Source: Clostridia bacterium (GTDB lineage Bacteria; Bacillota; Peptococcia; DRI-13; SM3-B62). Taken from it: DNA of 64,000 nt. The notes beneath the pieces were generated by a model, which was not told the origin of the DNA, ran no database searches, and saw only the letters and a program-made list of their open reading frames with translations. The position numbers and the translations under genes were made by a program. Location of the stretch: positions 37,413-101,412 of the forward strand of contig JAHDSQ010000017.1 of NCBI GenBank assembly GCA_018432615.1. Reading direction: 5' to 3'. Positions 2,769-52,367 of this stretch are shown here, one piece after another; the stretch's first letter is position 1, and each line of letters opens with the position of its first letter.

Positions 2769-3833
2769 ATGGGATATCTGATTTTAGTTATTAATCCGGG
2801 TTCAACCACAACAAAGCTTGCCGTTTATAACAATGAAAGAGAAAAGGTAAGTTCCAGCATAGAACATAATTCGCAAGAGTTGCAAGCTTTGGGGTCGATT
2901 ATTAATCAACTGTCTTTGCGTATAAAGGCAGTGGTGGATTTTCTTGATAAAAACAACATCAAGACTACCGAGCTTTCGGTAATTGCAGCTCGGGGTGGGC
3001 TCTTGCCGTCGGTAAAATCCGGCGCTTATGTGGTAAATGAGAAAATGGTAAAAACATTAATACAGGCTCCGGCAGGAGAACATGCTGCCAATTTGGGCGC
3101 TGTTATTGCCCGTGAGATTGCCAGTCCTTTGGGCCTTAAGGCGTATATCTATGATGCGGTTGCAATAGATGAGATGGAGGAGGTTGCCAAGTTCACCGGT
3201 CTTAGCGGTGTGACCAGGTCAAGCCTGGTTCATAACCTGAACATGCGAGCGGCTGCACGTGAAACCGCAGTGAAGGATAAAGTGAACTACAATCAGGCCA
3301 CCTACGTTATTGCTCATCTAGGGGGAGGAATTTCAATTGGTCTTTTAAAAAAGGGAAGGATGATAGATGTTGTTTCTGATGATGAAGGGCCTATGTCTCC
3401 GGAGAGGGCCGGGAGAATCCCTGCTTTGCAAATGTTGGGAATATGCTTAAAAAATCAAGAAGAAAAGGATGTCATGCAAAGAAAATTACGGGGACAGGGA
3501 GGTCTTGTTTCTCATTTGAATTCCAACAACGCACAAGAGGTTGAAAAAAGAATTCAGGACGGCGATATGTATGCCGCAAAAGTTTACAGGGCGATGGCTT
3601 ATCAAATCGCAAAAGGGATTGGAGAGTTGGTTGCCGCGGCAAGTGGAAAGGTCGATAAAATCATCTTAACAGGAGGGATGGCAAACTCCAAAATGTTGAC
3701 GGGATGGGTAAAAAAGCGAATTGTTTCTTTTGCTCCCGTTACAATCATTCCCGGTGAAAACGAAATGCGGGCATTGGCACAAGGTGCTTTTCGGGTATTA
3801 ACAGGCCAGGAAAAAGCTCGCCAATACAAATGA
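2769..3833 (+). CDS. buk: Butyrate kinase
   Basis: ILVINPGSTTTK, RGGLL, HLGGGIS, GPMSPERAG, ILTGG and PGENE motifs; GGAGG RBS upstream of ATG 2769. Confidence 0.93.
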   Translation: MGYLILVINPGSTTTKLAVYNNEREKVSSSIEHNSQELQALGSIINQLSLRIKAVVDFLDKNNIKTTELSVIAARGGLLPSVKSGAYVVNEKMVKTLIQAPAGEHAANLGAVIAREIASPLGLKAYIYDAVAIDEMEEVAKFTGLSGVTRSSLVHNLNMRAAARETAVKDKVNYNQATYVIAHLGGGISIGLLKKGRMIDVVSDDEGPMSPERAGRIPALQMLGICLKNQEEKDVMQRKLRGQGGLVSHLNSNNAQEVEKRIQDGDMYAAKVYRAMAYQIAKGIGELVAAASGKVDKIILTGGMANSKMLTGWVKKRIVSFAPVTIIPGENEMRALAQGAFRVLTGQEKARQYK

Positions 3834-4007
3834 AGTGAGTCAATAATTTATTTTGTCTTGCTACCCCAGCAAGAGTTATGCCAAAAAAATAAATAATACA
3901 CATAGTTGTAAATTTTAGAACAAAACAATACAATAAACGTCACATTTATGGTATTATTTCTGGTAAGAGTAAAATTATGTTTGTATGTCTTGTAGGGAGG
4001 AGTAAGA

Positions 4008-4784: not shown

Positions 4785-5714
4785 ATGTCAGCGTATCAAT
4801 TTGTTTATGGGCCAGTTCCTTCCAGGAGGATGGGACTTTCTCTTGGCATCAGTCCTATACCCAAGAAGGTATGTAATTACTCGTGTGTTTATTGCCAATT
4901 AGGAAGGACACGGGGAATGACTAACGAGCGGCGGTCGTTTTACCAGGTGGAGGCGCTTGTTAAGGAATTCAAGGATTATATTAAGAAAGGCGGAGTGTTT
5001 GATATTGTGACGCTCGTCGGCGAGGGAGAACCGACCTTATTTGCCGATATGCACGATCTTATTAAGGAACTCAAAAAAAACACTACAAAACCGATTGCAG
5101 TGATTACCAATGGTGCACTTTTGTACGAAGAGGAGGTAAAAGCCGGGCTGAAGGAAGCAGACCTCGTTTTGCCTTCGCTTGATGCTTATGATGAAGAGAC
5201 CTTTATAAAAATAAACCGCCCTTACGGTACAATTAGATTCGACGATGTTTTCCGGGGACTTAAGGATTTCTCCCATGAGTATGAAGGTGAATTATGGATC
5301 GAAACTATGCTGGTCAAGGGAATCAATGACAGCGAAGAGGGTTTACAGAAAATGAAGGAACTATTAACGGAGGTTTCATACGACAGACTATTTATCAATA
5401 GTCCGGTTCGGCCTCCGGCGGAGAAATGGGTCGAACAGCCATCAGAGGGGACCATGGCCAGAGCCCAGGAGATTTTGGGAGGTACACTCATAAATGTTTT
5501 GGCCTCTGAGGGATTTGCCAGTGGGGTAGAGGACCATTATGAGGCGGTGTTAAGCATTATCGGCAGGCACCCCATGAATCAGCATGAAGTCAGAAGCTTC
5601 TTAAATTCAAGAAGTTGTGATAATATAGAGGAAATATTCAAGAGACTGACACGGGACGACGGTGTAGAGACTATAGAATACAAAGGATATAAAACCTTTA
5701 GGCTGAAGTATTGA
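4785..5714 (+). CDS. Radical SAM protein (YGPVPSRR.G.SLG family)
   Basis: CNYSCVYC CxxxCxxC motif, GEGEPTL, ITNG. Confidence 0.88.
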   Translation: MSAYQFVYGPVPSRRMGLSLGISPIPKKVCNYSCVYCQLGRTRGMTNERRSFYQVEALVKEFKDYIKKGGVFDIVTLVGEGEPTLFADMHDLIKELKKNTTKPIAVITNGALLYEEEVKAGLKEADLVLPSLDAYDEETFIKINRPYGTIRFDDVFRGLKDFSHEYEGELWIETMLVKGINDSEEGLQKMKELLTEVSYDRLFINSPVRPPAEKWVEQPSEGTMARAQEILGGTLINVLASEGFASGVEDHYEAVLSIIGRHPMNQHEVRSFLNSRSCDNIEEIFKRLTRDDGVETIEYKGYKTFRLKY

Positions 5715-10920: not shown

Positions 10921-12465
10921 ATGTCCATTAATGTCACCACTAGAAGGATAAAGGTGGAAAACGTTATCGGTGAAGCGGTGAAGCAGGCAAACATTATTCG
11001 CGACATTACACTACCTGTGCCGGCTAAAAAAATAGAAAGCATCGATACTCAGATTCGAGACGTGAAAAGCAAAGTTATTGAGAACAAAGTAATTGTTGAG
11101 GCGATTCTGCATAAGCAAATATATTATGTGGAGTGCGTGACCGGCGATGTGCAGGAATACACAGTACCGGACGAAAAAATTACAGAGTTTGTCCATTTGG
11201 ATGGTGTTGAGCCGGGAATGGATGTCAGGACGGTCGTCGATATTGAGTATTGCGATGTCGAAGCCATTGATATGGTAGGAGACAATAACTGCCATACCAG
11301 ATTTCAACAGACTTGTATAGTAAGGATAAAAGTAAAGGTTATTGAAATGCTGGAATTTGAAGTAGTTACGGATGTCTCAGGTGTAGGTATCATCCCGACT
11401 TATCAGACAGTCGTTATTGACAATGTCATCGGTGCCGCCTGTGAGCAATATAACCTGAGTGACAGTTTTATTGAACTACCGGATGCTGCTGTTAAGATCA
11501 AGTCTGTAGATGCTGAGATTCAGGAGACGGAAGAGACGATTTTGCCTGACAAGGTAATCATCAAAGGGAAACTTCATAAGCAGATCTACTATGTTGTGGA
11601 GCCCGGCAGGGAAGTGAGAGAAACCCATGCGGATGTGCCATTCAGCGTTTTTGTCCATATTCCCGGAGCCAAAAAGGGAGCCATGGTAACCACAGATGTG
11701 CGTATCGAATACATCGATAATGAGCTGGTTGTCAGAAACGGAAGAAAGTATGTCAAGGAAACTGTTGTGCTGCAGATTTGTGCAAAGGTCACGGAACCAA
11801 TTACTATCTGCATTGTCACGGCGGTTGCGGGCGCAGAATATGAAACCAGGACGCTGAGTATTGAAAATGCCGTTGGAGAAGGGCGCCGTCAGGTTAACAT
11901 TTTGGCGAATTTTGTTACACCAACGGAGGCGCGCAAGGTAGCCAAGGTAGATGCCGAGGTGCGAGATTTAGAAGGCAAAGCTATTCCCAACAAAGTTATC
12001 ATTAAAGGAGTACTGCATAAACAAATATACTACGTTTCGGCAGTGGATGATCAGTTGCGGGAAATATCCCTTAATGAGCCGTTTACTGAATTTATTCATA
12101 TTGACGGTGTTCGTGAAAACGACATGGTTGATGTCACTGCCCGTATAGAATATGTCAATGTAGAAGCGGCAGCACCGACACCTACAACCAACTGGCGACA
12201 GACAGCAGTTTTGGAAATCATTGCGAATGTAACACAGACAGAAGAACTTACAGTTGTGGTAGCAGTGAAAGAAGCTGATTTTTGTGAGCCCGGGGAATCC
12301 TTTGACTACGTTATTCAAAAAGGAGATACTCTTATGGCGATAGCAATCAGGTTCAACAAGCCGCTTAAGGCAATACTGGAAGCGAATCCGCAAATCAAGG
12401 ATCCTAATATAATTTTTGTCGGCATGACAATAAAAATACCCTGTACCATCAAAGGTATGGGATAA
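10921..12465 (+). CDS. sipL: SipL-like spore coat morphogenetic protein (3x SPOCS/DUF3794 + LysM)
   Basis: Three repeats of KVII.G.LHKQIYYV...F..F.HI.G; C-terminal LysM YVIQKGDTL..IA. Confidence 0.82.
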   Translation: MSINVTTRRIKVENVIGEAVKQANIIRDITLPVPAKKIESIDTQIRDVKSKVIENKVIVEAILHKQIYYVECVTGDVQEYTVPDEKITEFVHLDGVEPGMDVRTVVDIEYCDVEAIDMVGDNNCHTRFQQTCIVRIKVKVIEMLEFEVVTDVSGVGIIPTYQTVVIDNVIGAACEQYNLSDSFIELPDAAVKIKSVDAEIQETEETILPDKVIIKGKLHKQIYYVVEPGREVRETHADVPFSVFVHIPGAKKGAMVTTDVRIEYIDNELVVRNGRKYVKETVVLQICAKVTEPITICIVTAVAGAEYETRTLSIENAVGEGRRQVNILANFVTPTEARKVAKVDAEVRDLEGKAIPNKVIIKGVLHKQIYYVSAVDDQLREISLNEPFTEFIHIDGVRENDMVDVTARIEYVNVEAAAPTPTTNWRQTAVLEIIANVTQTEELTVVVAVKEADFCEPGESFDYVIQKGDTLMAIAIRFNKPLKAILEANPQIKDPNIIFVGMTIKIPCTIKGMG

Positions 12466-41782: not shown

Positions 41783-44674
41783 TTGAATACTCAAGACTTA
41801 GAACAAATCCTATCTCAGCTTGATAATATAAAATTCTTTGAGGCTAATGGTTTACGGCCCAAAAAGAAAACCGGCAAATCATGGCCATGCGAATGCCCTT
41901 TTTGCGGTGACAAGAAACACTTGAATTTTGACCCTAAAACAGGGCTTTGGCAGTGTTTTAAATGCAATGAATCAGGGAATGCCGTAAGTTTCTACGCGAA
42001 AAGGCACAACTGTACTAATGGAGATGCTGTCAAGGCCATAAAAGAGTTTATGGGCATTGTGGATGAGCCGCAGCCGTCAAGAAAAAATAACAAAGCTAAA
42101 AGCAAGACTAACTCCAAACAAAAAAAAGAGGATCCAAAGAACGTTGGTCCAGCCAAGCCTCAAATATATGACAGGCTCATCCAGCTAGCCCAGTTAACAC
42201 CGGAGCACCGCGAAGAGTTGCAGAAGAAACGCGGATTCAATGACAAGATCATTGACAGCCTCCGGTTCCGCTCCGGCGGAGACTACATGATCGGCGTTGT
42301 GCAGCAGATACAAGATGAATATGAGGAATCTGATTTAGTTTCAGCGGGGATCCTGGTGGACGTGAATGGTTCTACTATTATTAACGATCAACTGAAAGAT
42401 GGACGGATCCTTATCCCTTATCTTGACGCTGCCGGAAATTGTTATCACTTACGGCCGCACAAATTAGGCTTCAAGGATATTCCTCCGGAAGCATATTGCC
42501 GCTTGTTGCTGCGTAATAAACCTGAGCATGTTGTTATTACAGAGGGTGAGTTTAAAGCGGCCGCACTTTTGCAATGGGGCATCCCTGCTTTGGCTATTCC
42601 GGGTGTTTCCACTTTTGGCAAGCTCTATTTCGAGCGGTTTTTGCAATTCCTCAAGGAACATAACATCAAAAAAACGACGATCATTTTTGATTCCGAAGAG
42701 AAGGGCAATCCCGAATACCCTAACTATAAAGAAAAGGCCGAAGATCGTTACGATACGGAATATTGGTCGTATTTTATGGGATATCAACTCAGCAGACATG
42801 GAGTAAGCACAAAGATCGGATGGCTGCCGGCCGAATGGCGCGAAAACGGGAAGATTGATTTTGACGGTGCTCTGGCTCAAGGCCGAAGCAAAGAGGATAT
42901 TATCCAGGTGATCAGCAAGGCCAAAACACCTAAAGAGTACAAAAACTCGCTGGATGAGGAAGCTCATAAAATAGTTGAACGCAAGCTGGCCCGCTATTTT
43001 GCCAAGGAGAAGATCAAGCGTGATTTTAACAGATATATTGCCCTCCGGTTCACGAAGGACAAGTCTTGGGAGGAAACGATTAGTAATTTTGTTATAAATA
43101 TCAAGTCAAGTTTCTACACACCCTCCGGCGTGGTCAGGAACGTGGAACTTGTCAATCAGTACGGTGAAGCTTCAGAGACTTTTGTTTTGGAACCAGGATC
43201 CATGGCCGGCGTGAATGAGTTTAAAAAATTTTTACTCTCTAAAGGCAATTATCTCTTTTACGGCAAGGGCGATGATCTGACTAACATTTGGGAGTATGAG
43301 TTTCTGCGCGACACCGGAGAGCTGATCTGGATGCCGGAAAAAATCGGGAAGATCTCCGGAGATATATGGTTGTTTGGAAATATGGGGATCAAGGACGGTA
43401 AGTGTTACCCGCCGGATAATGACGGAATAATTTGGATTGACAAACGCGGGTACAAGCCTCAGTCGCTGCGTGTTGGGCCCGGAGGTGAGCCGTTAGAGGA
43501 TTCAATCCCGGCCCTGAGTATCCGGCATATAGACATCAAGGAAATTGCCTATAAGCTGAAACAAAGCATTGGCGGTTATGAGGCATATATGGGCATTGGT
43601 TGGGTTGTGGCTGCGATTTTTGCCGATGAGATTTTCCGGGTTTATAAATGTTCGCCTATCCTTTTCCCACATGGCAAACGGGAAAGCGGCAAATCAACCT
43701 TTATGCGTTGGTTGATGAATTTCTTCGGGATTGAAACGGAGGGAATCTCGGTCGGCCGGACAACAACACAAAACTTTGTGGCCCGGATCCTTTCCTATCG
43801 ATCATGTATCGGGGTTTGGTTTGATGAATACCGAAACGAACTCGGTGTCGTGGAAAAAGACGGGTTATTCCGCAGTGCATACAATCGGCAGGTATCAGGG
43901 AAAGGAACAGCTACGGCGTTTCAGGCAAAAGGATTTAGCGTCAACGCAGTGATGGCTATTAGTGGGGAAGAGCTGCCTAAGGATAACGGTCTATTTACAC
44001 GCTGTATCCCGTTGCAGATATCTTCCTACAAGAGAGACCGTACTTGGTACGACTGGTTGAACAAAAACTCAGTGCAGTTCTCGTCCTTTGCATATCATTT
44101 GTTGCTACATTATGAGGAATACAAAAAGAAGGTCCTGCAAAGTATTGCTGAGCTGAAACGTGCACTGATTAAGCTAGACGTTACTGATCGTACTGCTGAG
44201 AACTGGGCTATTTGTGCGGCTGCCTTTGAAGCTACGGTTATGGAAGACGATGGATTTATCCGATGGGTTGAAAAGAGCTGCCAGGAAATCAAACGCACCG
44301 GCGAAGAGGAACATATGCTTAACCAATTCTGGGAAGATGTAAACTATTTGGTGAGTAACAATGATGTCGGTTTTAAGCATATCAGGGTAAGTGGGGACAA
44401 GCTGTATGTTTGGTTAGCGGGGTTATATGAAACATGGGCCTTGCACTATAAGAAAAAAACAGGTAGAGAACCATTTGATAGACAGTCAATCATTAAATAC
44501 TTACAAGACGAGCCTTACTATATTACAGCAGAACCACGAAAAATGGGATCTGTTTCAAGAAAAGTCCATATTCTCGGTATTGAATCTGCCACGGATATTA
44601 TCAAGGAAATTTCTTGTGCACTGGATATCCAAACAGAAATTACCGAAAACTCATCAAAACTACCTGGCTATTAA
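41783..44674 (+). CDS. Primase-helicase (Zn finger + TOPRIM + P-loop)
   Basis: CPFCGD..H...WQCFKC, ITEGEFKA, IIFDS, DFD, Walker A GKRESGKST, WFDEY. Confidence 0.88.
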   Translation: MNTQDLEQILSQLDNIKFFEANGLRPKKKTGKSWPCECPFCGDKKHLNFDPKTGLWQCFKCNESGNAVSFYAKRHNCTNGDAVKAIKEFMGIVDEPQPSRKNNKAKSKTNSKQKKEDPKNVGPAKPQIYDRLIQLAQLTPEHREELQKKRGFNDKIIDSLRFRSGGDYMIGVVQQIQDEYEESDLVSAGILVDVNGSTIINDQLKDGRILIPYLDAAGNCYHLRPHKLGFKDIPPEAYCRLLLRNKPEHVVITEGEFKAAALLQWGIPALAIPGVSTFGKLYFERFLQFLKEHNIKKTTIIFDSEEKGNPEYPNYKEKAEDRYDTEYWSYFMGYQLSRHGVSTKIGWLPAEWRENGKIDFDGALAQGRSKEDIIQVISKAKTPKEYKNSLDEEAHKIVERKLARYFAKEKIKRDFNRYIALRFTKDKSWEETISNFVINIKSSFYTPSGVVRNVELVNQYGEASETFVLEPGSMAGVNEFKKFLLSKGNYLFYGKGDDLTNIWEYEFLRDTGELIWMPEKIGKISGDIWLFGNMGIKDGKCYPPDNDGIIWIDKRGYKPQSLRVGPGGEPLEDSIPALSIRHIDIKEIAYKLKQSIGGYEAYMGIGWVVAAIFADEIFRVYKCSPILFPHGKRESGKSTFMRWLMNFFGIETEGISVGRTTTQNFVARILSYRSCIGVWFDEYRNELGVVEKDGLFRSAYNRQVSGKGTATAFQAKGFSVNAVMAISGEELPKDNGLFTRCIPLQISSYKRDRTWYDWLNKNSVQFSSFAYHLLLHYEEYKKKVLQSIAELKRALIKLDVTDRTAENWAICAAAFEATVMEDDGFIRWVEKSCQEIKRTGEEEHMLNQFWEDVNYLVSNNDVGFKHIRVSGDKLYVWLAGLYETWALHYKKKTGREPFDRQSIIKYLQDEPYYITAEPRKMGSVSRKVHILGIESATDIIKEISCALDIQTEITENSSKLPGY

Positions 44675-44976
44675 CCAAAAGTAGTCGGAAAGTAGTTGCC
44701 CAGGTAGTCGGTTTAAAACATTAAGCGACAAGGGATTTGAAGGTTGCGACTACCTGACTACCTCACTTTCCCGGAAAAAATATTTTTCAAAAATACTTTT
44801 CATTATTTCAATAAGTTTTTCTTTATCTTTTAGCAGTCAACTAAAAAAATATATGCGTTTTCTAAAAACCCAGGTAGTCGAGGTAGTCGGATTCTCGTAA
44901 GCCTTGCAATAAAAGAATTATAGCGACTACCTGAGGAACTACCTAGCGACTACCTCAAAAGTAGTTCAGGTAGTCG
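44658..44976. repeat. Iteron-type replication origin: about 13 copies of (CAG)GTAGT(CG) in both orientations flanking an AT-rich core
   Basis: CAGGTAGTCG at 44701, 44871 and 44967; CGACTACCTG at 44747 and 44924; further variants; AT-rich 44775-44869. Confidence 0.8.
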
Positions 44977-44999
44977 CCAATAAAAAAGGGATGGTGAAA

Positions 45000-45434
45000 A
45001 TGGGAAGATACGATCAGCTATTAAGCAATAACACTCAGAAGGATCCCTTGCCAAAAAACAATACAGACCCTCGTCCCGATATAGTCCAAGATCATCGTTT
45101 ATGGCTCAAAATACTGGTTAACGCAAAAGAGTTGTTCAATGAATCCAACCTTTTTGAAGTTTTACACGGGATTCGCTGCGGCGGTGGAATGCTGGAAGAA
45201 ACGAAAAGAGCATTCAAACTGCATCCAGGAAATGAAGAGTGGGCGGATCCGCATGAGTGGACCAGGGTGAAACAAAAATGGCTCGACCCTGTGAAGGATG
45301 ATTTATTAAATCTTTTCCGATTATCGAAAATTGGACAAGTAACGGATCAGGAATTACCACCGGGTGTTTTCGAAGAAGAAGCCATAGAAACAAAAGAACG
45401 TAAGCAAGAGTGCTTATTTAAGGGAGGAGCTTAG
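45000..45434 (+). CDS. Hypothetical phage protein
   Basis: Open frame after the origin, coupled to the next gene. Confidence 0.7.
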   Translation: MGRYDQLLSNNTQKDPLPKNNTDPRPDIVQDHRLWLKILVNAKELFNESNLFEVLHGIRCGGGMLEETKRAFKLHPGNEEWADPHEWTRVKQKWLDPVKDDLLNLFRLSKIGQVTDQELPPGVFEEEAIETKERKQECLFKGGA

Positions 45435-45435
45435 G

Positions 45436-45810
45436 ATGAGTATAAACAGTAGAGATAAGGGTGCCCGGGGAGAACGTGAATTTGCTGCACTATGCCGGGC
45501 AGAAGGGTATGACGGCTGCCGGAGAGGTCAGCAGTATAACGGTATTGAAGGCGAAGATGTGGTTGGGTTGCCATACATGCATGTTGAAGTAAAAAGGGTT
45601 GAGAAACTCAATATTGATAAAGCTATGGCCCAATCTATGCAGGATTGTAGCGGGAAAATCCCGATTGTGGCACACCGAAAAGATAGGTGTTCTTGGCTCA
45701 TTACGATGAAGGCTGAAGATTGGTTTATGTTGTTCCGTGAATTTTGCTCAGGCGAAGTGTTGAAGGAGGTTGCCGCCAATGAAAAAACAAATAATCATCC
45801 CCAAGGGTAG
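45436..45810 (+). CDS. Putative Holliday junction resolvase (PD-(D/E)XK)
   Basis: SRDKGARGERE, D.VGLP..HVEVKR, PIVAHR. Confidence 0.75.
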   Translation: MSINSRDKGARGEREFAALCRAEGYDGCRRGQQYNGIEGEDVVGLPYMHVEVKRVEKLNIDKAMAQSMQDCSGKIPIVAHRKDRCSWLITMKAEDWFMLFREFCSGEVLKEVAANEKTNNHPQG

Positions 45811-45967
45811 CTCCCTTGAAGAGCTGGAAACCCAATTTAAAAATCCGCTTGTAGTGGTCAACATTAAGACCGGCGAAGTTGCGGTTAACCGAATACGGGA
45901 AGTATGGCAGCGGGAAGGGTGCACGGAGATTAGGCAAGGTGAAGAAAAATTAAGACGGAGTATGTAA
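45779..45967 (+). CDS. Hypothetical phage protein
   Basis: AAGGAGG RBS before ATG 45779. Confidence 0.55.
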   Translation: MKKQIIIPKGSSLEELETQFKNPLVVVNIKTGEVAVNRIREVWQREGCTEIRQGEEKLRRSM

Positions 45968-45994
45968 AAAATGCGTAACTAGGAGGTTTAAAAA

Positions 45995-46708
45995 TTGAAA
46001 CCCATTTATGAGCCGAAAGGCAGGGCGAAAGAGTACGGCGATTATGCGCTGAACATATACACTGGATGCCCGCACCGTTGTTATTACTGCTTTGCGCCGA
46101 GCGTCTTGCATAAAGACCGCGAAGCCTTCCATAGCAACGTGGAGCCAAGAAAAGGCATAGTAGAGGCAGTTAAACGGCAGTTGATATCTGAGAACATCAA
46201 AGAAAAATTGATTCATCTGTGCTTTACTTGCGACCCGTATCCAATAGGACACGACAGCGGTGTGACAAGGGAGATTATCAAGCTGATTAAAAACAGCGGG
46301 AACCACGTGCAAATACTTACCAAAAACGGCATAGGAGCACAAAGAGATTTTGATTTGCTGGATAACAAGGATTGGTTCGGCGTTACTTATGCGGGCTATA
46401 AAACAACCCCTGTCGTACCGCCTGAAGAAGAACAGAACGCAGGATGGCCAATTGATCGATTCCGGGCACTGGTGTTGGCAAAAAACAAGGGCGTAAACAC
46501 ATGGGTATCTTGCGAACCCGTCTTTGACGCAGAGGCCATTTATCGTCTGATTGAAAATGGCGCATATATTGACCTGTTTAAAATAGGGAAACTGAATTAC
46601 CATCCATCGGTGATAAACTGGGGTGCGTTCGGGCGGGAGTGTGAAAGACTGTGTAAAAAACATAACCGCCAGTATTACATCAAAGAGGATTTAAGGGCGA
46701 TGATATGA
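45995..46708 (+). CDS. Radical SAM protein (SPL-like phage family)
   Basis: ALNIYTGCPHRCYYCFA, DPYP, ILTK, WVSCEPV, KIGKLNY. Confidence 0.82.
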   Translation: MKPIYEPKGRAKEYGDYALNIYTGCPHRCYYCFAPSVLHKDREAFHSNVEPRKGIVEAVKRQLISENIKEKLIHLCFTCDPYPIGHDSGVTREIIKLIKNSGNHVQILTKNGIGAQRDFDLLDNKDWFGVTYAGYKTTPVVPPEEEQNAGWPIDRFRALVLAKNKGVNTWVSCEPVFDAEAIYRLIENGAYIDLFKIGKLNYHPSVINWGAFGRECERLCKKHNRQYYIKEDLRAMI

Positions 46709-46751
46709 CACAACACAAAATTATGTGAAGGAGTGAAAGGATGATGAATAA

Positions 46752-47015
46752 ATGAAAATTGAGATTGAAATTGATGAGAAATATATAGCCGAATTAGTAT
46801 CACAAGAAATTGCAATGCGCATTGTGGCAGAGCGTGGATATGAGGGTAGAGAAGCTAAAATAGGAATCAGAAACGGTGTAGATAAAGCAATAAAGAGTTA
46901 TATCTACTCGAAAAAAGATGAAGTAATCGAAAGGGTTGTCGGGAGAGCCTCAGCCGAGATGGTGAAAAAAGGATTGCCAAAGCTTTTAGACAGACTGGGG
47001 GAGATGAAGGAATGA
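46752..47015 (+). CDS. Hypothetical phage protein
   Basis: ORF in a co-oriented gene run. Confidence 0.65.
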   Translation: MKIEIEIDEKYIAELVSQEIAMRIVAERGYEGREAKIGIRNGVDKAIKSYIYSKKDEVIERVVGRASAEMVKKGLPKLLDRLGEMKE

Positions 47016-47350
47016 ATAAATATCAGCAAGCAATTGCCTATTTTGAAGATGCCGTAAGGGAATCGGATGAGATTATAGATGATTGTAGTCCAACCTTACA
47101 AGCAGAATTGATAGAGCAAAAAAATCATTTTGTTGTGGCTCTTGATGTCATGCGGGCAAGTCTCTGGATATCAGCATCTGAAAGGTTGCCCGAATATGGC
47201 GATACCGTACTTGCTTTTATAAAACACAATTACAACAACGATGGATGGAGAGCCTACAGAGTATATGAATACACGGATCATTGGGTAACGATGGGCAACT
47301 TATGTGAAGTTATTGCGTGGATGCCATTACCGGAAGCCCCAAAGGAGTGA
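47012..47350 (+). CDS. DUF551-like phage protein
   Basis: WIS.SERLPE...V.AWMPLPE.P. Confidence 0.75.
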   Translation: MNKYQQAIAYFEDAVRESDEIIDDCSPTLQAELIEQKNHFVVALDVMRASLWISASERLPEYGDTVLAFIKHNYNNDGWRAYRVYEYTDHWVTMGNLCEVIAWMPLPEAPKE

Positions 47351-47355
47351 AAATA

Positions 47356-47553
47356 ATGTGGAAAAAACTCAATGTGAAAGAAGTGGAAGTCTTTCTGCCT
47401 CATGACAACTATTGCAATAGCTGTCAGTTTAAGCAGTATATAAATCATCAAATAAAACACAAGTGTAACCTGTTTGGCGGACGAATTGAGCGAGACGGGG
47501 CCAATTTTATTCGATTAGAAATTTGTAAAAATGCGGAGGTACATGAAAGATGA
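47356..47553 (+). CDS. Small Cys-rich phage protein
   Basis: AAGGAG RBS; CNSC...CNLF...R...C. Confidence 0.6.
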   Translation: MWKKLNVKEVEVFLPHDNYCNSCQFKQYINHQIKHKCNLFGGRIERDGANFIRLEICKNAEVHER

Positions 47554-47984
47554 ATAGCATTAATTTTCGGGCCTGGTACCCAGAAAAACAAAAAATGTAT
47601 GAAGTGGCGAAAGTAGATATGTGGGGAGATCCAGACCAAGCTACTTGCGACTTAGCTGCCGTAGACGAAGAATTGTTTGATATCTATTTAAACGAAGTTG
47701 AAACGATGCAATATATCGGGGTTAAAGACAAACACGGTCGAGAAATATGTGAAGGGGATATTATCCAGACATATTTCAGCTTTGCACCAGGCGATGCTGG
47801 ATATGGGGTATCACAGAAACCATTTGTTGTGAAATGGGAACAAGGCAGGTCAAGCTTTAGAGCATACAAACCCAATACAGATGGTCTACATTTGCTTGAT
47901 ATTATAGATTTTTTTGAGATACAGAACGGGCTGTATGAGGTAATCGGGAACATCTATGAGAATCCTGAATTACTTAATCAGTAG
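47550..47984 (+). CDS. YopX family protein
   Basis: FRAW, MQYIG.KDK.G.EI.EGDI, EVIGNIYENPELL. Confidence 0.88.
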   Translation: MNSINFRAWYPEKQKMYEVAKVDMWGDPDQATCDLAAVDEELFDIYLNEVETMQYIGVKDKHGREICEGDIIQTYFSFAPGDAGYGVSQKPFVVKWEQGRSSFRAYKPNTDGLHLLDIIDFFEIQNGLYEVIGNIYENPELLNQ

Positions 47985-48055
47985 TTCATATTCCAAAATA
48001 AACGCGAAAAAATGAACATTATGTAAAAAATGCGAAGCACGAGAGAAGGTGAGAA

Positions 48056-48871
48056 ATGAACACGGTCCTAAAATATCCCGGTAGTAAATGGAGTTTAGCG
48101 GAATGGATTATCTCAAACTTTCCGTCCGGATACGAGAATATGACTTACCTGGAACCCTTTTTTGGCAGCGGGGCCGTCTTTTTCAATAAGAATCGAAGCG
48201 TGATCGAGACAATAAACGACCTTGACGGAAATGTAATCAATCTTTTCAAGCAGATACGAGACAATCCGGAAGTATTGGCTAAGGTGGTTAAATATACGCC
48301 TTGGTCCCGCGAGGAATACGCTCTGAGTTATCACAAGACAGGGGAAGAACTAGAGGACGCCCGCCGTTTTTTGGTCCGTATGTGGCAAGCTATAGGCGCT
48401 AAAAGTAGCGATAGAACCGGTTGGAGAAGTAATATACAGGCGCTCAACGGTAATGTGCCACAATGGGCAACAAAATTGCCAGAAAACATTATTGCTATAG
48501 CAGACCGGCTGAGGCACTCGAATAATCGGCTTGTGCAGATTGAGAACCGCCCGGCTGTAGATTGCATAAAAAGATATGCCAGAGAAAATGTATTTATCTA
48601 CGCGGATCCTCCGTATGTTCTGAGTACAAGAAGCAAAAGGATATATGCTTGCGAAATGAAAGACGCTGACCATGTAGAACTATTACAATTGCTTATTAAG
48701 CATCCGGGGCCAGTGATGATTTCCGGGTACGCGAATGACATATACACATCCATCCTGTCCGGATGGAAAACACTTACCAAGTCGGCGCATTGCGAGGGTG
48801 GATTGACAAGAGAAGAGATCTTATGGATGAACTACGAGCCACCAGCGGAACAATTAAGCATTACGTTTTAG
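48056..48871 (+). CDS. DNA adenine methyltransferase (Dam/D12 class)
   Basis: KYPGSKW, YLEPFFGSGAV, ETIND, YADPPY. Confidence 0.9.
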   Translation: MNTVLKYPGSKWSLAEWIISNFPSGYENMTYLEPFFGSGAVFFNKNRSVIETINDLDGNVINLFKQIRDNPEVLAKVVKYTPWSREEYALSYHKTGEELEDARRFLVRMWQAIGAKSSDRTGWRSNIQALNGNVPQWATKLPENIIAIADRLRHSNNRLVQIENRPAVDCIKRYARENVFIYADPPYVLSTRSKRIYACEMKDADHVELLQLLIKHPGPVMISGYANDIYTSILSGWKTLTKSAHCEGGLTREEILWMNYEPPAEQLSITF

Positions 48872-48906
48872 TGAACAACACAACAAAATTGCGAAGGAGT
48901 GAGAAT

Positions 48907-49128
48907 ATGGCTAAATGTAGAAAATGCCTACACGGCGCAAGGATAAGCATAACAGGTACTAATAAAAAGACCCTTAAAATGGACATGGGTGGTGCTGTAC
49001 TATATCTTATGCCTAAAAGCAATGGGAAAATGGAAGTAGCGCTAAATAGTGAAAACCTAAGTGAGGGCGATTATGCCTCTGCAACATGGGACGGGGAGCA
49101 ATGGTATTACGCTACCGGAAAGGAGTGA
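48907..49128 (+). CDS. Hypothetical phage protein
   Basis: AAGGAG RBS; N-terminal CRKC. Confidence 0.6.
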   Translation: MAKCRKCLHGARISITGTNKKTLKMDMGGAVLYLMPKSNGKMEVALNSENLSEGDYASATWDGEQWYYATGKE

Positions 49129-49136
49129 AACATCTT

Positions 49137-49523
49137 ATGACCAAAGAGCAGCTGCGCCAATATAGGTACCTAAAAAAAGAAATTATATTGCTGCAGGAAG
49201 AAATCCAGCAGCTAAGGACAAGCCTTCAGGCGGTTCCTCAACTGGATGGTATGCCGCATAGCAACTTTGCTGCAGATCGGACGGCGGGAGTAGTAGCCAA
49301 GATTGTTGACCTCGAAGCGCAGCTGCACAAAACACTTCGTGACATGATTGATCTGCGCGGAGAAATTGAGGAATGTATTGAGGGGCTGCCAGCTGATCAG
49401 CGGTTGTTGATGAGGCTGAGGTATATCGAGGGGCTGAGGTGGGCAGCCGTTGCGGTGGAGATGAATTATAGCTATAAACAGGTATGTAGGATTCACGGGA
49501 AAGTATTGCAAGTAATTAAATAA
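49137..49523 (+). CDS. Late transcriptional activator (DUF1492/ArpU/RinA-like)
   Basis: MT.EQL.QY, GMP, LRYIEG..W..VA.EM.YS...V.RIH; last gene before the packaging module. Confidence 0.8.
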   Translation: MTKEQLRQYRYLKKEIILLQEEIQQLRTSLQAVPQLDGMPHSNFAADRTAGVVAKIVDLEAQLHKTLRDMIDLRGEIEECIEGLPADQRLLMRLRYIEGLRWAAVAVEMNYSYKQVCRIHGKVLQVIK

Positions 49524-49525
49524 AG

Positions 49526-49560
49526 ATGTCCCAAAATGTCCTAAACATCTGTGGTATTAT
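49526..49560 (+). promoter_or_regulatory. Putative late promoter
   Basis: ATGTCC direct repeats at 49526 and 49536, then extended -10 TGGTATTAT. Confidence 0.6.
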
Positions 49561-49670
49561 GGTAGTGTAGAATTAAGCACTTGCAGATGCAGGTGCATTT
49601 TGTTTTGCAAGGCAGCCGCAAGGCGGGGAATGTACACTTTGATATAGCGGGGCGGGGGCTGAGAAGTGTA

Positions 49671-50033
49671 GTGGGGTTAAACATATACAACCAAGAAGAA
49701 GTTGGGAAATGGATACAATCTCTTATTGACGAGGATAGGATTCATGACTTTTATGTATCTAGCTATTGGCTCAATCTGCGAGCTGAAATTCTGGAAGAAG
49801 ATAAGAACGAATGCCAGCACTGCAAGAAAAGAGGATTATACAAGAAGGCTGATACAGTACACCATGTTAAGCACCTAAGGGATTATCCTATATTGGCACT
49901 AAGTAAGACATATATATTCCAGGGCAAGGAACGCAGGCAATTAGTATCGTTATGCCGGCAGTGCCACGAGGCAGAGCATCCAGACAGGATACAAAAAGAA
50001 AAGACCGAACCGTTGACGGAAGAAAGGTGGTAG
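49671..50033 (+). CDS. HNH endonuclease (terminase-associated)
   Basis: FY.S..W...R, CQHC, VHHV, L.SLCRQCHE.EH; start uncertain. Confidence 0.85.
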   Translation: MGLNIYNQEEVGKWIQSLIDEDRIHDFYVSSYWLNLRAEILEEDKNECQHCKKRGLYKKADTVHHVKHLRDYPILALSKTYIFQGKERRQLVSLCRQCHEAEHPDRIQKEKTEPLTEERW

Positions 50034-50034
50034 C

Positions 50035-50322
50035 ATGAGCTGCAGGTACAAGAATAAATGTCCCTCTTACACAGGCTGGTGTGAGGATCCAAAGCAAGAC
50101 TTCTCAAAGTGCGTACCATTTCTGATTACTGCTTACGAGAATAAGTGCATCGAGAAAGCAGAAGGTTGTACACCGCTGACTATATACATACCTGATATCT
50201 TTATTGAGACAGGGAATATAGAGCAGCTGAAAGAGTTTCTTTATGGCGTGATAGCAGACGCCATTTATAATAGGCAGGTAGAGTTGGGAATAGACCCCCG
50301 GTCAGAAAAAATAGCGTTTTAA
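50035..50322 (+). CDS. Hypothetical Cys-rich protein
   Basis: ORF between HNH and terS; AAGGTGG RBS. Confidence 0.5.
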   Translation: MSCRYKNKCPSYTGWCEDPKQDFSKCVPFLITAYENKCIEKAEGCTPLTIYIPDIFIETGNIEQLKEFLYGVIADAIYNRQVELGIDPRSEKIAF

Positions 50323-50346
50323 TCTAGGGGGGCTTGACCGAGGGGG
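50295..50346. other. Probable cos/packaging region
   Basis: CCCCCGGTCA ... TGACCG(A)GGGGG inverted repeat between HNH and terS. Confidence 0.5.
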
Positions 50347-50398
50347 ATATAAGACAGAAGAAACGCACCAAAAATCTCGCGTGACAGGGGGTGGTAAT

Positions 50399-50716
50399 GT
50401 GGCAAGGAAGAACGAAATAAAAAAAGACCTACTCGATCAGCTCGACAGAAATGGGGTGTACGGTAAGCATTACCGAGACCTCATCAATGACTATATGTCT
50501 CTTTGGGATATAAAAAACAAGCTCATCAAGGATATCAAGACCCGGGGAGTCTCTGTTCACTGGTGTAACGGAGGCGGCCAAGAGGGGTACAAGAAAAACG
50601 ACTCCATCGCCGAGCTGAACAAGACCAATGCTCAGATGCTCAAGATACTCAATGAACTTGGGCTAAAGGCTAAGAGTGAGGAACATGGCGGTGAAGGGGA
50701 TGACGAAGAAATGTAA
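50399..50716 (+). CDS. Terminase small subunit (P27-like)
   Basis: DL..DYM.LW.IK..L..DI..RGV...NGGGQ...K.N.S...L.K.N.QMLKIL..LGL. Confidence 0.85.
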   Translation: MARKNEIKKDLLDQLDRNGVYGKHYRDLINDYMSLWDIKNKLIKDIKTRGVSVHWCNGGGQEGYKKNDSIAELNKTNAQMLKILNELGLKAKSEEHGGEGDDEEM

Positions 50717-52367
50717 GTATCATCCATATATTGATTCTTACATGGACGGTGTCCGGGACGGATCCATAATTGTTGGTGAAGATATTAAGCTGGCAATGAA
50801 CTACGTTGAGTATAAACTCAGCAACCCGGATGTATATATCGACCATGAGAAGATAGATAAAGCTATTGAGTTAATGGAGAGATACTTTGAAATCAAGCTC
50901 TTTGATTGGGAGTTTTTTGTAATAGCTTGTATCCATTGCTATTACAAGTCAGACGATACTGTTGTGTTCAGCACTATATTTATCATGGAGGGCCGGGGAA
51001 ACGGGAAAAACGGGTTTATTTCTCCCCTGGCCTGGTACTTATCAACTCAATACCATGGTATAAAAGGCTATAACATTGACATAGTGGCTAATGCGGAGGA
51101 CCAAGCTAAGACATCATTCACTGATATTTATGATATGCTCGAACGGACCTGGGCTAAGTCAAAGAAATTCTTCTACAAGACCAAGGAAATTATAGTCAAT
51201 CTCAGGACTAACTCGTATATCAAGTTTAATACCTCGAACGCAAAAACGAAGGATAGCAAGAGAACCGGTTGCCTCATCTTCGATGAAGTTCACGGTTATG
51301 AAAATTATAAACAGATTAAAGTTTTTACCTCAAGCTTTGGCAAACGACCGCACGCCAGGGCTTTTTATATTACAACTAATGGGGAAGTACGTGAGGGTGT
51401 ACTCGATGATATGTTGGCCATTGCCGGTGATATTTTGAATGGTACGATAAAAGACCTCCGCTGGCTGCCATTGATATACCGGATTGATGATGAGAAGGAA
51501 GCCCTGGATCCACAGATGTGGCATAAAGCCAATCCCTCTCTAAAATATCTGGATACACTCAAGCTAGAGATGGAGCAGCATTTCATTGAAATGAAATACC
51601 AACCGGCCATGGAAGAAGAATTTTACACCAAACGGCTGAACTGGCCGAAGCAAAACAAAGAAATCATCGTTACAGAGTGGAAAAATATAGCGGCCACGAA
51701 TAAGCCTATGCCAGAACTAAGAGGCAGGAGCGCAACAGTCGGCATTGACTATGCGAAGATAACAGACTTTGCCTCTGTGAATATCCACTTCCGGGAGGGG
51801 GACCTGCGTTATGACATAAACCACTCATGGCTGTGCTTAAAATCTGCAGATATCCCCCGGTTGAAAGTACCCTGGCAACAATGGGCAGACCAGGGGTATT
51901 TGACATTGGTGGATGATGTGGAAATTAATCCTGACTTACTGACTGACTACATAGCAGAACAGGCCCAGCATTACAACTTAGTCAAGCTGGCCTTAGATAA
52001 CTTCCGGTATGCGTTAGTGTCTAAATCGCTTAAGCGTATCGGGTTTGACGCTAACGAGAGAAAAAATATTAAATTGGTGCGGCCTTCTGACATCATGAAG
52101 GTGGTACCGGTAATAGAGAGCTGCTTTGTCAATCAATATTTCATATGGGGGGACAACCCTCCGCTCCGGTGGGCGGTCAATAATACCAAGCTAATTAAAT
52201 CAGGGTACAAGACCGGCAACGATACCGGGAACTATGTATATGGAAAAATCGAGGGTAAGAGCAGAAAGACAGATCCGTTTATAGGTTTGGTAGCAGCAAT
52301 GACGATAGAGGATGAGTTAGAGACAGGCGGTAACACATATGACGATATCCCGGTGATCGTCAGCTAA
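50700..52367 (+). CDS. terL: Terminase large subunit
   Basis: GRGNGKNG Walker A, IFDEVH Walker B, ITTNG, KANP, GIDYA, RKTDP. Confidence 0.92.
   Translation: MTKKCKYHPYIDSYMDGVRDGSIIVGEDIKLAMNYVEYKLSNPDVYIDHEKIDKAIELMERYFEIKLFDWEFFVIACIHCYYKSDDTVVFSTIFIMEGRGNGKNGFISPLAWYLSTQYHGIKGYNIDIVANAEDQAKTSFTDIYDMLERTWAKSKKFFYKTKEIIVNLRTNSYIKFNTSNAKTKDSKRTGCLIFDEVHGYENYKQIKVFTSSFGKRPHARAFYITTNGEVREGVLDDMLAIAGDILNGTIKDLRWLPLIYRIDDEKEALDPQMWHKANPSLKYLDTLKLEMEQHFIEMKYQPAMEEEFYTKRLNWPKQNKEIIVTEWKNIAATNKPMPELRGRSATVGIDYAKITDFASVNIHFREGDLRYDINHSWLCLKSADIPRLKVPWQQWADQGYLTLVDDVEINPDLLTDYIAEQAQHYNLVKLALDNFRYALVSKSLKRIGFDANERKNIKLVRPSDIMKVVPVIESCFVNQYFIWGDNPPLRWAVNNTKLIKSGYKTGNDTGNYVYGKIEGKSRKTDPFIGLVAAMTIEDELETGGNTYDDIPVIVS

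Follow-up and report, generated by a model that had tools for sequence, protein, structure and literature searches.

Reused leaders at gene borders in the accessory region of a Clostridia prophage

What are the short, similar sites that separate the accessory genes of a prophage in the genome of a Clostridia bacterium (G000, 3.16 Mb)? The sites, named S1 to S5, lie in a window of 64,000 nucleotides (G000:C42:37413-101412), which holds the prophage from about 30.2 kb on according to gene calls and matches to Pfam and PHROG. They occupy an accessory stretch with a resolvase gene on one side and the gene of a sigma-like late regulator on the other. A preliminary description of this DNA had presented them as a single family of quasi-palindromic 24-mers, with a 5+14+5 layout, punctuating the genes in the manner of an integron-like cassette array. 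Its account of the positions was accurate: the five 24-mers start at 45954, 46706, 47985, 48013 and 48872, the degenerate copy TGTAAAAATGCG lies at 47524-47535, all read on the + strand, and the sites overlap or follow a stop codon and precede the next Shine-Dalgarno (SD) sequence and start codon. They bracket, as had been described, a radical SAM gene, the block orf87-DUF551-orf78-yopX, an "empty slot" of 28 bp and a D12 methyltransferase gene, and an exact 13-mer search of the window returned the two known copies only, in keeping with the statement that no further copies are present.

We consider it probable that the sites are portable translation-initiation leaders, or relics of gene tails, and that they serve as mosaic joints in recombination of a general or microhomology-mediated kind. 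They form the leaders, from stop codon to start codon, at four gene junctions of an integrated temperate phage, within its hypervariable early accessory region. Homology exists within two separate families of sites, the same leaders stand beside unrelated genes across host families, homology between genomes breaks at leader edges in three comparisons, gene order is in flux, and the direct repeats that flank the units are specific to each unit. The finding is clear but ordinary: it is phage mosaicism with reused leaders, and not an integron-like system.

Two families of leaders

The genes of this prophage mostly overlap or lie a few bases apart, and the accessory stretch has four longer spacers, of 27, 43, 71 and 35 nucleotides (nt), which are made up almost wholly of S1 to S5. 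All accessory genes, like the sites, the orf87-flanking repeats and the mini open reading frames (mini-ORFs) described below, lie on the + strand, and no sigma-70-type promoter was found at the junctions; the genes are thus co-oriented, promoterless units.

Type A comprises S1, S4 and a weaker copy that lies in frame at the 3' end of orf78. S1 (45954..45977; core 45961-45977, TATGTAAAAAATGCGTA) overlaps the stop codon of orf65 (45965-45967), and the spacer that follows (45968-45994) carries AGGAGG ahead of the TTG start of the radical SAM gene. S4 (48013..48036; core 48020-48036) precedes ATG 48056, the start of the gene for a D12-class N6-adenine DNA methyltransferase (48056..48871; PF02086, E 6.8e-28; phrog_56). 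The two sites share exactly the 15-mer TATGTAAAAAATGCG, a length reached in 0/5000 shuffles of the four junctions; this word has two copies in the 3.16-Mb genome, S1 and S4, and the local-alignment score of the pair was reached in 2/1000 shuffles. As a 15-bp direct repeat, it brackets a block of 2,059 bp. The orf78 end, compared with type A by pairwise local alignment, gave a score against S4 that 9/1000 shuffles reached. There, TGTAAAAATGCG encodes C-K-N-A of the protein, in which C and K are invariant in 8/8 homologues and N and A are the majority residues; a search for nucleotide relatives of orf78 gave none among 42 candidate IMG/VR stretches (0/42 qualified) and only its own copy among 88 genomes of the class.

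Type B comprises S2 and S5, with the layout ACAACACAA..AATT..GYGAAGGAGTGA. S2 (46706..46729) has a core at 46720-46735 (ATTATGTGAAGGAGTG) that includes the SD, and S5 (48872..48895), a type B-like leader, comes after the methyltransferase stop and ends with GAAGGAGTGA before orf73 (48907..49128), which encodes a small CxxC protein. Their alignment covers about 33 columns, with a score reached in 0/1000 shuffles, and neither type occurs elsewhere in the 3.16-Mb genome. Across the types, the pair S4 and S5 was marginal (18/1000 shuffles), and the remaining pairs gave no significant local alignment. S3 (47985..48008), an A-rich spacer after the yopX stop, was left out of the pairwise shuffle tests; it has no homologue in the other loci and no independent statistical support, and its membership of a family is unsupported.

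The idea of one five-member family did not survive these comparisons, nor those made with a position weight matrix (PWM). When each site was held out in turn, the window positions that matched or beat it on the + and - strands, training sites included, numbered 1635/1227 for S2, 90/61 for S1, 12/4 for S3, 6/2 for S5 and 3/0 for S4. The genome scan that the preliminary description had named beforehand as the test able to refute its proposal went against it: at the score of the weakest site, the five-site PWM had 12 matches in the genome, 7 of them besides the five sites, and column-permuted PWMs had a mean of 7.6 (range 2-13). The term quasi-palindromic has likewise to be dropped. The junctions fold no better than their shuffles, with no excess structure (z -0.68, +0.11, -0.01 and +1.47), no inverted-repeat arms were found at the sites, and the 9-bp palindrome ACATTATGT is present in S4 alone, the sole such site in the window. 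A palindromic operator was also considered and rejected, ACATnATGT occurring once in the window and nothing similar being found in the cI-cro region.

The same leaders beside unrelated genes

By using the 17-mer pattern TATGTWAAAAATGCGWA, type A was found in 3/34 genomes of the order (twice in G000, once each in G003 and G004), still in 3/88 at the level of the class, with none added, and once (G428) among 400 other genomes of the phylum; reversed-pattern controls gave 0 in 34, 88 and 401 genomes. The G003 copy, TGAACATTATGTTAAAAATGCGTA, is identical to S4 at 22/24 positions. The S4 and G003 leaders align over 52 columns, up to ATG 48056, and the alignment of S1 with the G003 leader extends through the start codon, each score being reached in 0/1000 shuffles. 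In G003 the site lies in a prophage, after a dGTP-diphosphohydrolase-like gene and before that of a 275-amino-acid radical SAM protein, which has only the CxxxCxxC motif in common with the enzyme of the window.

The type B 16-mer ATTATGTGAAGGAGTG was likewise found in 3/34 genomes of the order (G000, G003 and G010; control 0), in each case in a variable region and before a different small gene. No alignment was obtained between orf87 and the 98-amino-acid ORF that follows the G003 copy, and the 50-amino-acid ORF of G010 differs as judged from the DNA past the site, not from a protein comparison. In IMG/VR the 16-mer had 17 matches, which by our own classification are 4 noncoding leaders, 3 RecU 3' ends, 7 positions inside long ORFs and 3 ambiguous cases. 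At the loci L258, L260, L270 and L271 the same leader sequence adjoins unrelated genes. The RecU 3' ends (...YMNNYVKE*) belong to L262, L264 and L268 (PF03838, E 3.9e-29, tested on L262), and these are the only genes in which the type B core is genuine coding sequence. A "Y-V-K" coding relic was rejected for the sites at large, the frames at S1, S4, S2 and the type B copies of G003 and G010 being open for just 2-6 codons upstream; it is retained as a possible origin of type B only.

Diverged leaders were seen at two further phage loci. The methyltransferase of the IMG/VR locus L068, with 79% amino-acid identity to that of the window, is preceded by a diverged leader of type A and followed by an S5-like one, TGAACATAACAAAGATTAAGCGAAGGAGG; in L244, which was fetched through its primase, the gene of a C5 cytosine methyltransferase follows a leader that resembles type A but is diverged. 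In its phage instances, type A therefore precedes only genes of S-adenosylmethionine (SAM)-dependent enzymes, namely two unrelated radical SAM proteins and the D12 and C5 methyltransferases, an association of four instances, one of which comes from a locus fetched with the methyltransferase itself. Either a slot common to DNA-modification genes or a dedicated signal for expression could lie behind it. Altogether, 13 primase loci share the RecD-primase-orf147 backbone, 2 of them with the resolvase too; their accessory regions differ, and apart from the L244 leader none recurs in them. When 61 related genomes were searched at the DNA level, the matches were confined to the sigma/late region; a search of a phage collection gave two short matches, and one of genome contigs gave 3 methyltransferase loci, all without the motifs.

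Chance resemblance among A-rich, SD-bearing spacers, with neither common origin nor common function, would be the simplest alternative. It agrees with the lack of statistical support for S3 and for the pentamer GCGAA, the permuted-level PWM counts, the poor leave-one-out ranks of S1 and S2 and the cross-type alignments; GAAGGAG, moreover, is merely an SD. The 15-mer TATGTAAAAAATGCG also has more than 117 matching stretches in IMG/VR, nearly all of them coding and read as C-K-K-C-G (frames judged on 80 stretches with DNA, L083-L162). The word is common in viral contigs because TGT AAA AAA TGC GG encodes C-K-K-C-G of zinc ribbons, and it is a trap for motif searches that use it. Chance is, however, at odds with the shuffles of the pairs S1/S4, S2/S5, S4/G003 and S1/G003 and with the empty reversed-pattern controls. 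On these comparisons chance resemblance can be regarded as refuted for S1/S4, S2/S5 and the G003 and G010 copies; it is the best reading of S3, and as an account of the whole set it is improbable. Two kinds of viral matches were set aside: the 8 IMG/VR matches to a type A 18-mer were unrelated or ambiguous, none having the arrangement of SD and start that S1 and G003 show, and AGTATGTAA, upstream of a methyltransferase gene in L200, is a chance match, since it lies inside an ORF.

In three comparisons the homology between phages breaks at a site. Between G003 and G010, a block of 80.7% identity ends at G003rc 10955, immediately at the left edge of the type A sequence TGAACATTATGTT, and resumes at 11860, so that the leader and radical SAM gene of G003 replace an 84-amino-acid ORF and an HNH_3 gene of G010. 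The window and L068 have in common only the leader-methyltransferase-leader unit; the upstream alignment stops left of the leader, and orf73 does not align with the gene after the S5-like site of L068. Finally, L262 and L264 diverge from L268 right after the type B core. At the same junction of L068, a 139-nt direct repeat (3830-3968 and 4823-4961; 92% identity) flanks a two-gene insertion. This repeat duplicates the 3' end of a 315-amino-acid gene just upstream of the methyltransferase leader, and judging from the sequence the insertion is a clear case of homologous exchange.

Genes also move one at a time. Contigs of four metagenomes from landfill, bioreactor and wastewater samples (X2, X4, X5 and X6) were compared with positions 42000-52000, and the block orf87-DUF551-orf78-yopX (46676-48011) had many relatives of 80-99% identity in them, with the gene order permuted and individual genes absent. 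In these contigs the homology to orf87 starts at 46751/46752, preceded by "GGAG", "AAATAAGGGAGGTTGCTT" or "AGAAGCGAAAGAGGTGAATGAAAG", with the orders orf78 to orf87 and DUF551 to orf87; one contig lacks DUF551, with a joint from 47002 to 47355; radical SAM homology starts at 45996 behind another leader; and yopX homology ends at 47974-47980.

The direct repeats that flank the units differ from one unit to the next: the 15-mer TATGTAAAAAATGCG, the 10-nt ATGAATAAAT and AAATGAACA. This difference favours general or microhomology recombination and disfavours a site-specific enzyme with a single core. The ATGAATAAAT copies (46744..46753 and 47012-47021) flank orf87 (46752..47015; no family match). 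The left one lies within a four-codon mini-ORF, ATGATGAATAAATGA (MMNK*, 46741..46755), which uses the SD of S2, and the right one is the start of the DUF551 gene (47012..47350; PF04448, E 5.9e-11); the mini-ORF may be read as an insertion scar. The AAATGAACA copies (48010-48018 and 48054-48062) flank the S4 leader. Since the left copy opens the mini-ORF ATGAACATTATGTAA (MNIM*, 48012..48026), whose ATGAACA is the same as the methyltransferase start, and the right copy is that start itself, the "empty slot" looks like a gene start fused to a gene tail, and could be read as a deletion or fusion scar.

A mechanism can be proposed from these observations. Each segment, of about 20-45 nt, would run from the last codons and stop of the upstream gene through an unstructured A-rich stretch to the SD and start. 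The leaders would be retained with a gene or a slot because they supply the translation initiation of the following gene, and at least some would be remnants of a gene that once stood upstream, namely of its 3' end: that of RecU in some phages for type B, and that of a gene like orf78 for type A. Being shared among genes, they would also offer short homologies for the insertion, deletion or swap of single genes by general, relaxed or microhomology-mediated recombination, through phage or host enzymes and with no dedicated site-specific recombinase; the S1/S4 repeat serves as an example.

Several results weigh against this mechanism. Metagenomic relatives of 80-99% identity have their joints at start or stop codons with different leaders, and S1 or S2 was found in the flanks of 0/58 radical SAM loci, which indicates that gene exchange does not need the leaders; the expectation that breakpoints fall at the sites is borne out in the three comparisons above and fails in these relatives. 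In about 0.94 Mb of related phage loci, the S4 17-mer with up to 3 mismatches had 11 + strand matches against a permuted mean of 4.6 (maximum 11), and the S5 15-mer had 2 against a mean of 2.9, which makes the leaders low-copy elements and no pervasive linker. The type A copy of G004 has non-phage surroundings and forms one arm of a terminator-like hairpin (z -2.95), and that of G428 precedes a host gene, a single match in 400 genomes being roughly the chance expectation. The noncoding identity over 16-24 nt across host families could reflect selection on a binding site and not a history of recombination. Recombination at the leaders is itself deduced from sequence, and the derivation of type A from an orf78-like gene would depend on a marginal alignment.

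Two of these sets of loci offer observations of their own. In G004 (L256, G004:C46, 6154-6196) a perfect 12-bp hairpin, whose 5' arm coincides in part with the type A core, stands between convergent genes in a neighbourhood of GNAT, GrpB and cupin genes, and the opposite strand reads as a terminator stem with a T-run. In 7/58 radical SAM loci (L015, L017, L018, L025, L027, L051 and L059), about 25 nt, ATGGAGATGCTGGAGGGGATGGA, stand right before the ATG with different sequence further upstream; they are a further junction segment linked to a gene, here in another group of phages.

Regulatory signals, site-specific recombination and known phage systems

The sites might instead be cis-regulatory. 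Type A would be a weak -16/-10 promoter of the TRTG-type extended -10 kind, from which the gene behind it is transcribed separately, or both types would be operators, bound by a phage protein with affinity for RNA or DNA that controls the timing of accessory-gene expression, in the manner of a translational operator or a stoperator. This would account for the conservation of 16-24 noncoding nt in prophages of three host families with both flanking genes differing, for the orientation of the copies along transcription at 10-30 nt upstream of the SD, and for the restriction of phage type A instances to SAM-dependent enzyme genes. The extended -10 consensus of Gram-positive bacteria is TRTGnTATAAT, to which TATGtTAAAAA of G003 and TATGTAAAAAAT are similar. 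Yet a promoter and terminator scan found none at the sites and no -35 element, type B has no -10-like hexamer after TATG, and each type has two copies per genome with none elsewhere in the prophage or the genome, the cI-cro region included. The genome G001 has the sigma-like regulator (66% amino-acid identity) yet neither motif in 18 kb, and the SAM-enzyme association is limited to the four instances discussed above. An ECF-sigma-like motif, TGAAC-N14-GCGWA, was rejected as a general motif, with 9 genome matches at spacing 14 against 6-12 at spacings 12-16. Rfam, including its riboswitch and leader families, gave nothing above threshold for the leaders (STnc410 reached 20.1 bits on the - strand against a gathering score of 50). 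Taken together, a regulatory role is an unlikely explanation of the sites, though it deserves more weight than chance.

The integron-like proposal treats the sites as 24-bp att-type targets of a site-specific recombinase that acts in trans and moves promoterless cassettes. Integrons employ the tyrosine recombinase IntI, and their attC sites are imperfect inverted repeats that fold and carry conserved outer cores. The resemblance lies in co-oriented, tightly packed, promoterless single-gene units separated by short sites; relatives, moreover, gain, lose and reorder single genes, a 15-bp direct repeat surrounds the 2,059-bp block, and some mosaic boundaries fall at sites. In contrast, IntI is missing from the contig, and the sites lack an attC fold, conserved cores and a common crossover site. 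The remark of the preliminary description that no tyrosine recombinase is present is correct for contig C42, which has 0 of the 8 PF00589 matches of the genome, and a Pfam scan of 32 prophage ORFs identified the serine integrase and no other recombinase. The sites fall into two unrelated families, the flanking repeats are unit-specific, relatives' joints lie at start and stop codons with unrelated leaders, and the five-site PWM does no better across the genome than permuted ones. What stands of the cassette array is thus the gene-by-gene flux and the coincidence of some mosaic boundaries with sites; an integron-like site-specific system is extremely improbable.

A bolder extension of the preferred reading, in which the sites are leaders that serve as mosaic joints, would make types A and B an undescribed class of portable leader cassettes of 20-45 nt in temperate phages of anaerobic Firmicutes, combining expression signals with preferred crossover points. 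Such cassettes would carry an SD, to which type A might add a -16/-10 promoter reserved for SAM-dependent DNA-modification genes, and recombination between S1 and S4 would loop out a 2,059-bp circle with the radical SAM gene, orf87, DUF551, orf78 and yopX. We regard this extension as doubtful.

Among described systems, the leaders come closest to the boundary sequences of phages. In the model of modular evolution of lambdoid phages as presented by Pope et al. (2011; PMC3029335), short conserved boundary sequences between genes are proposed as substrates for general recombination, and the same source describes gene deletions and insertions that arise between short repeats. The likeness to boundary or linker sequences so portrayed lies in short conserved junction sequences, repeated within a genome, common to unrelated modules or phages and placed at breaks of homology. 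The differences are that here the sequences are translation-initiation leaders themselves (20-45 nt including the SD) with two copies per genome, that the host is a Gram-positive anaerobe from a wastewater or landfill-type sample, and that the joints of near relatives lie mostly elsewhere.

The Promoter(early) Stem-Loop elements (PeSLs) of T4-type phages, as Arbiol et al. (2010; PMC2839356) portray them, are numerous, conserved intergenic cassettes of about 100 bp with a strong sigma-70 promoter and a terminator hairpin. They stand on either side of differential ORFans in hyperplastic regions and provide the signals for expressing the enclosed gene, which is lost or gained when adjacent copies recombine; mini-circles were shown physically. 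The window leaders likewise flank differential genes in a hyperplastic region, a similar shuffling in function and not in anatomy, whereas they are 20-45 nt long, with no promoter match, no hairpin and two copies each, and are known from sequence alone. In the bolder extension above, the leaders would play the part of PeSLs, one accessory gene at a time. The stoperators of Cluster A mycobacteriophages, according to Pope et al. (2011; PMC3029335), number 23-36 per genome, with a 13-bp consensus and at most 2 departures from it, and match the operator of the repressor. Compared with that description, they are also asymmetric short sites that are intergenic or overlap gene ends, in a single orientation relative to transcription, but here each type has just two copies, and the cI-cro region contains nothing like them.

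De Paepe et al. (2014; PMC3945230) present relaxed homologous recombination, carried out by phage recombinases, as the source of temperate-phage mosaics. It offers an enzymology able to use short, diverged homologies, and the predicted traces of border homology are seen at G003/G010 and at window/L068. Two differences stand against the parallel: the homologies here, of 9-45 nt, are shorter than those generally meant, and no Rad52-like recombinase was identified in the prophage, whose early region has SbcCD-like, RecD2-like and PDDEXK/RusA-like genes.

In place of a phage integron, the locus provides a documented case of accessory-gene movement in temperate phages of poorly studied anaerobes, where genes move singly, joints lie at gene borders and a few reused leaders pass between unrelated genes and host families. 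Should the leaders turn out to be favoured points of crossover or regulatory signals in common use, they would provide landmarks for hypervariable slots, such as those of DNA-modification enzymes, in metagenomic phages.

Neighbouring genes and other repeats of the prophage

The prophage begins with a serine integrase gene (31764-30217 when read along its own, - strand; identified in the Pfam scan), followed in gene order by that of a CI-like S24 repressor. Next are SbcCD-like genes, a RecD2-like helicase gene and the primase gene (41783-44674), after which come a repeat-rich spacer of 316 nt (44675-44990), orf147 and the PDDEXK/RusA-like resolvase gene (45436-45810). The gene order then continues with orf65, radical SAM, orf87, DUF551, orf78, yopX, the D12 methyltransferase and orf73. 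Within it, the radical SAM gene (45995..46708) encodes 237 amino acids and matches phrog_13321 and PF04055 (E 1.1e-6), the latter with 29.4 bits, marginally below the 29.5 cut-off. The gene orf78 (47356..47553) encodes 65 amino acids from ATG 47356, the longest ORF beginning at 47317, and yopX (47550..47984) matches PF09643 (E 9.9e-23). The sigma-like regulator (49086-49523) precedes the HNH, terminase, portal, protease and capsid genes.

The spacer at 44675-44990 is full of GGTAGTCG/CGACTACC copies in both orientations; GCGACTACCTGA, for instance, is found at two positions (44746 and 44923) and as its complement at 44966. There is also an inverted repeat of 36 nt at 81%, and a long spacer occupies this place in relatives with the primase in common, too. 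By its repeats, the spacer resembles a replication origin of the iteron type or an array of regulator sites. Another spacer (49524-49600), after the sigma-like gene, has the direct repeat ATGTCCCAAAATGTCCTA, whose DNA sequence is conserved in both G003 and G010 and which precedes a terminator-like hairpin (49577-49596); this may be a late-promoter or regulator-binding region upstream of the HNH and terminase genes.

The prophages of G010 and G003 (L234, 4535-5625; L235, reverse strand) encode a tyrosine recombinase (PF00589, E 1.8e-37). Its gene sits in the middle of the early region, between PolA-type and VapE-type genes and after a conserved leader of about 110 nt, a location that is unusual for an integrase.

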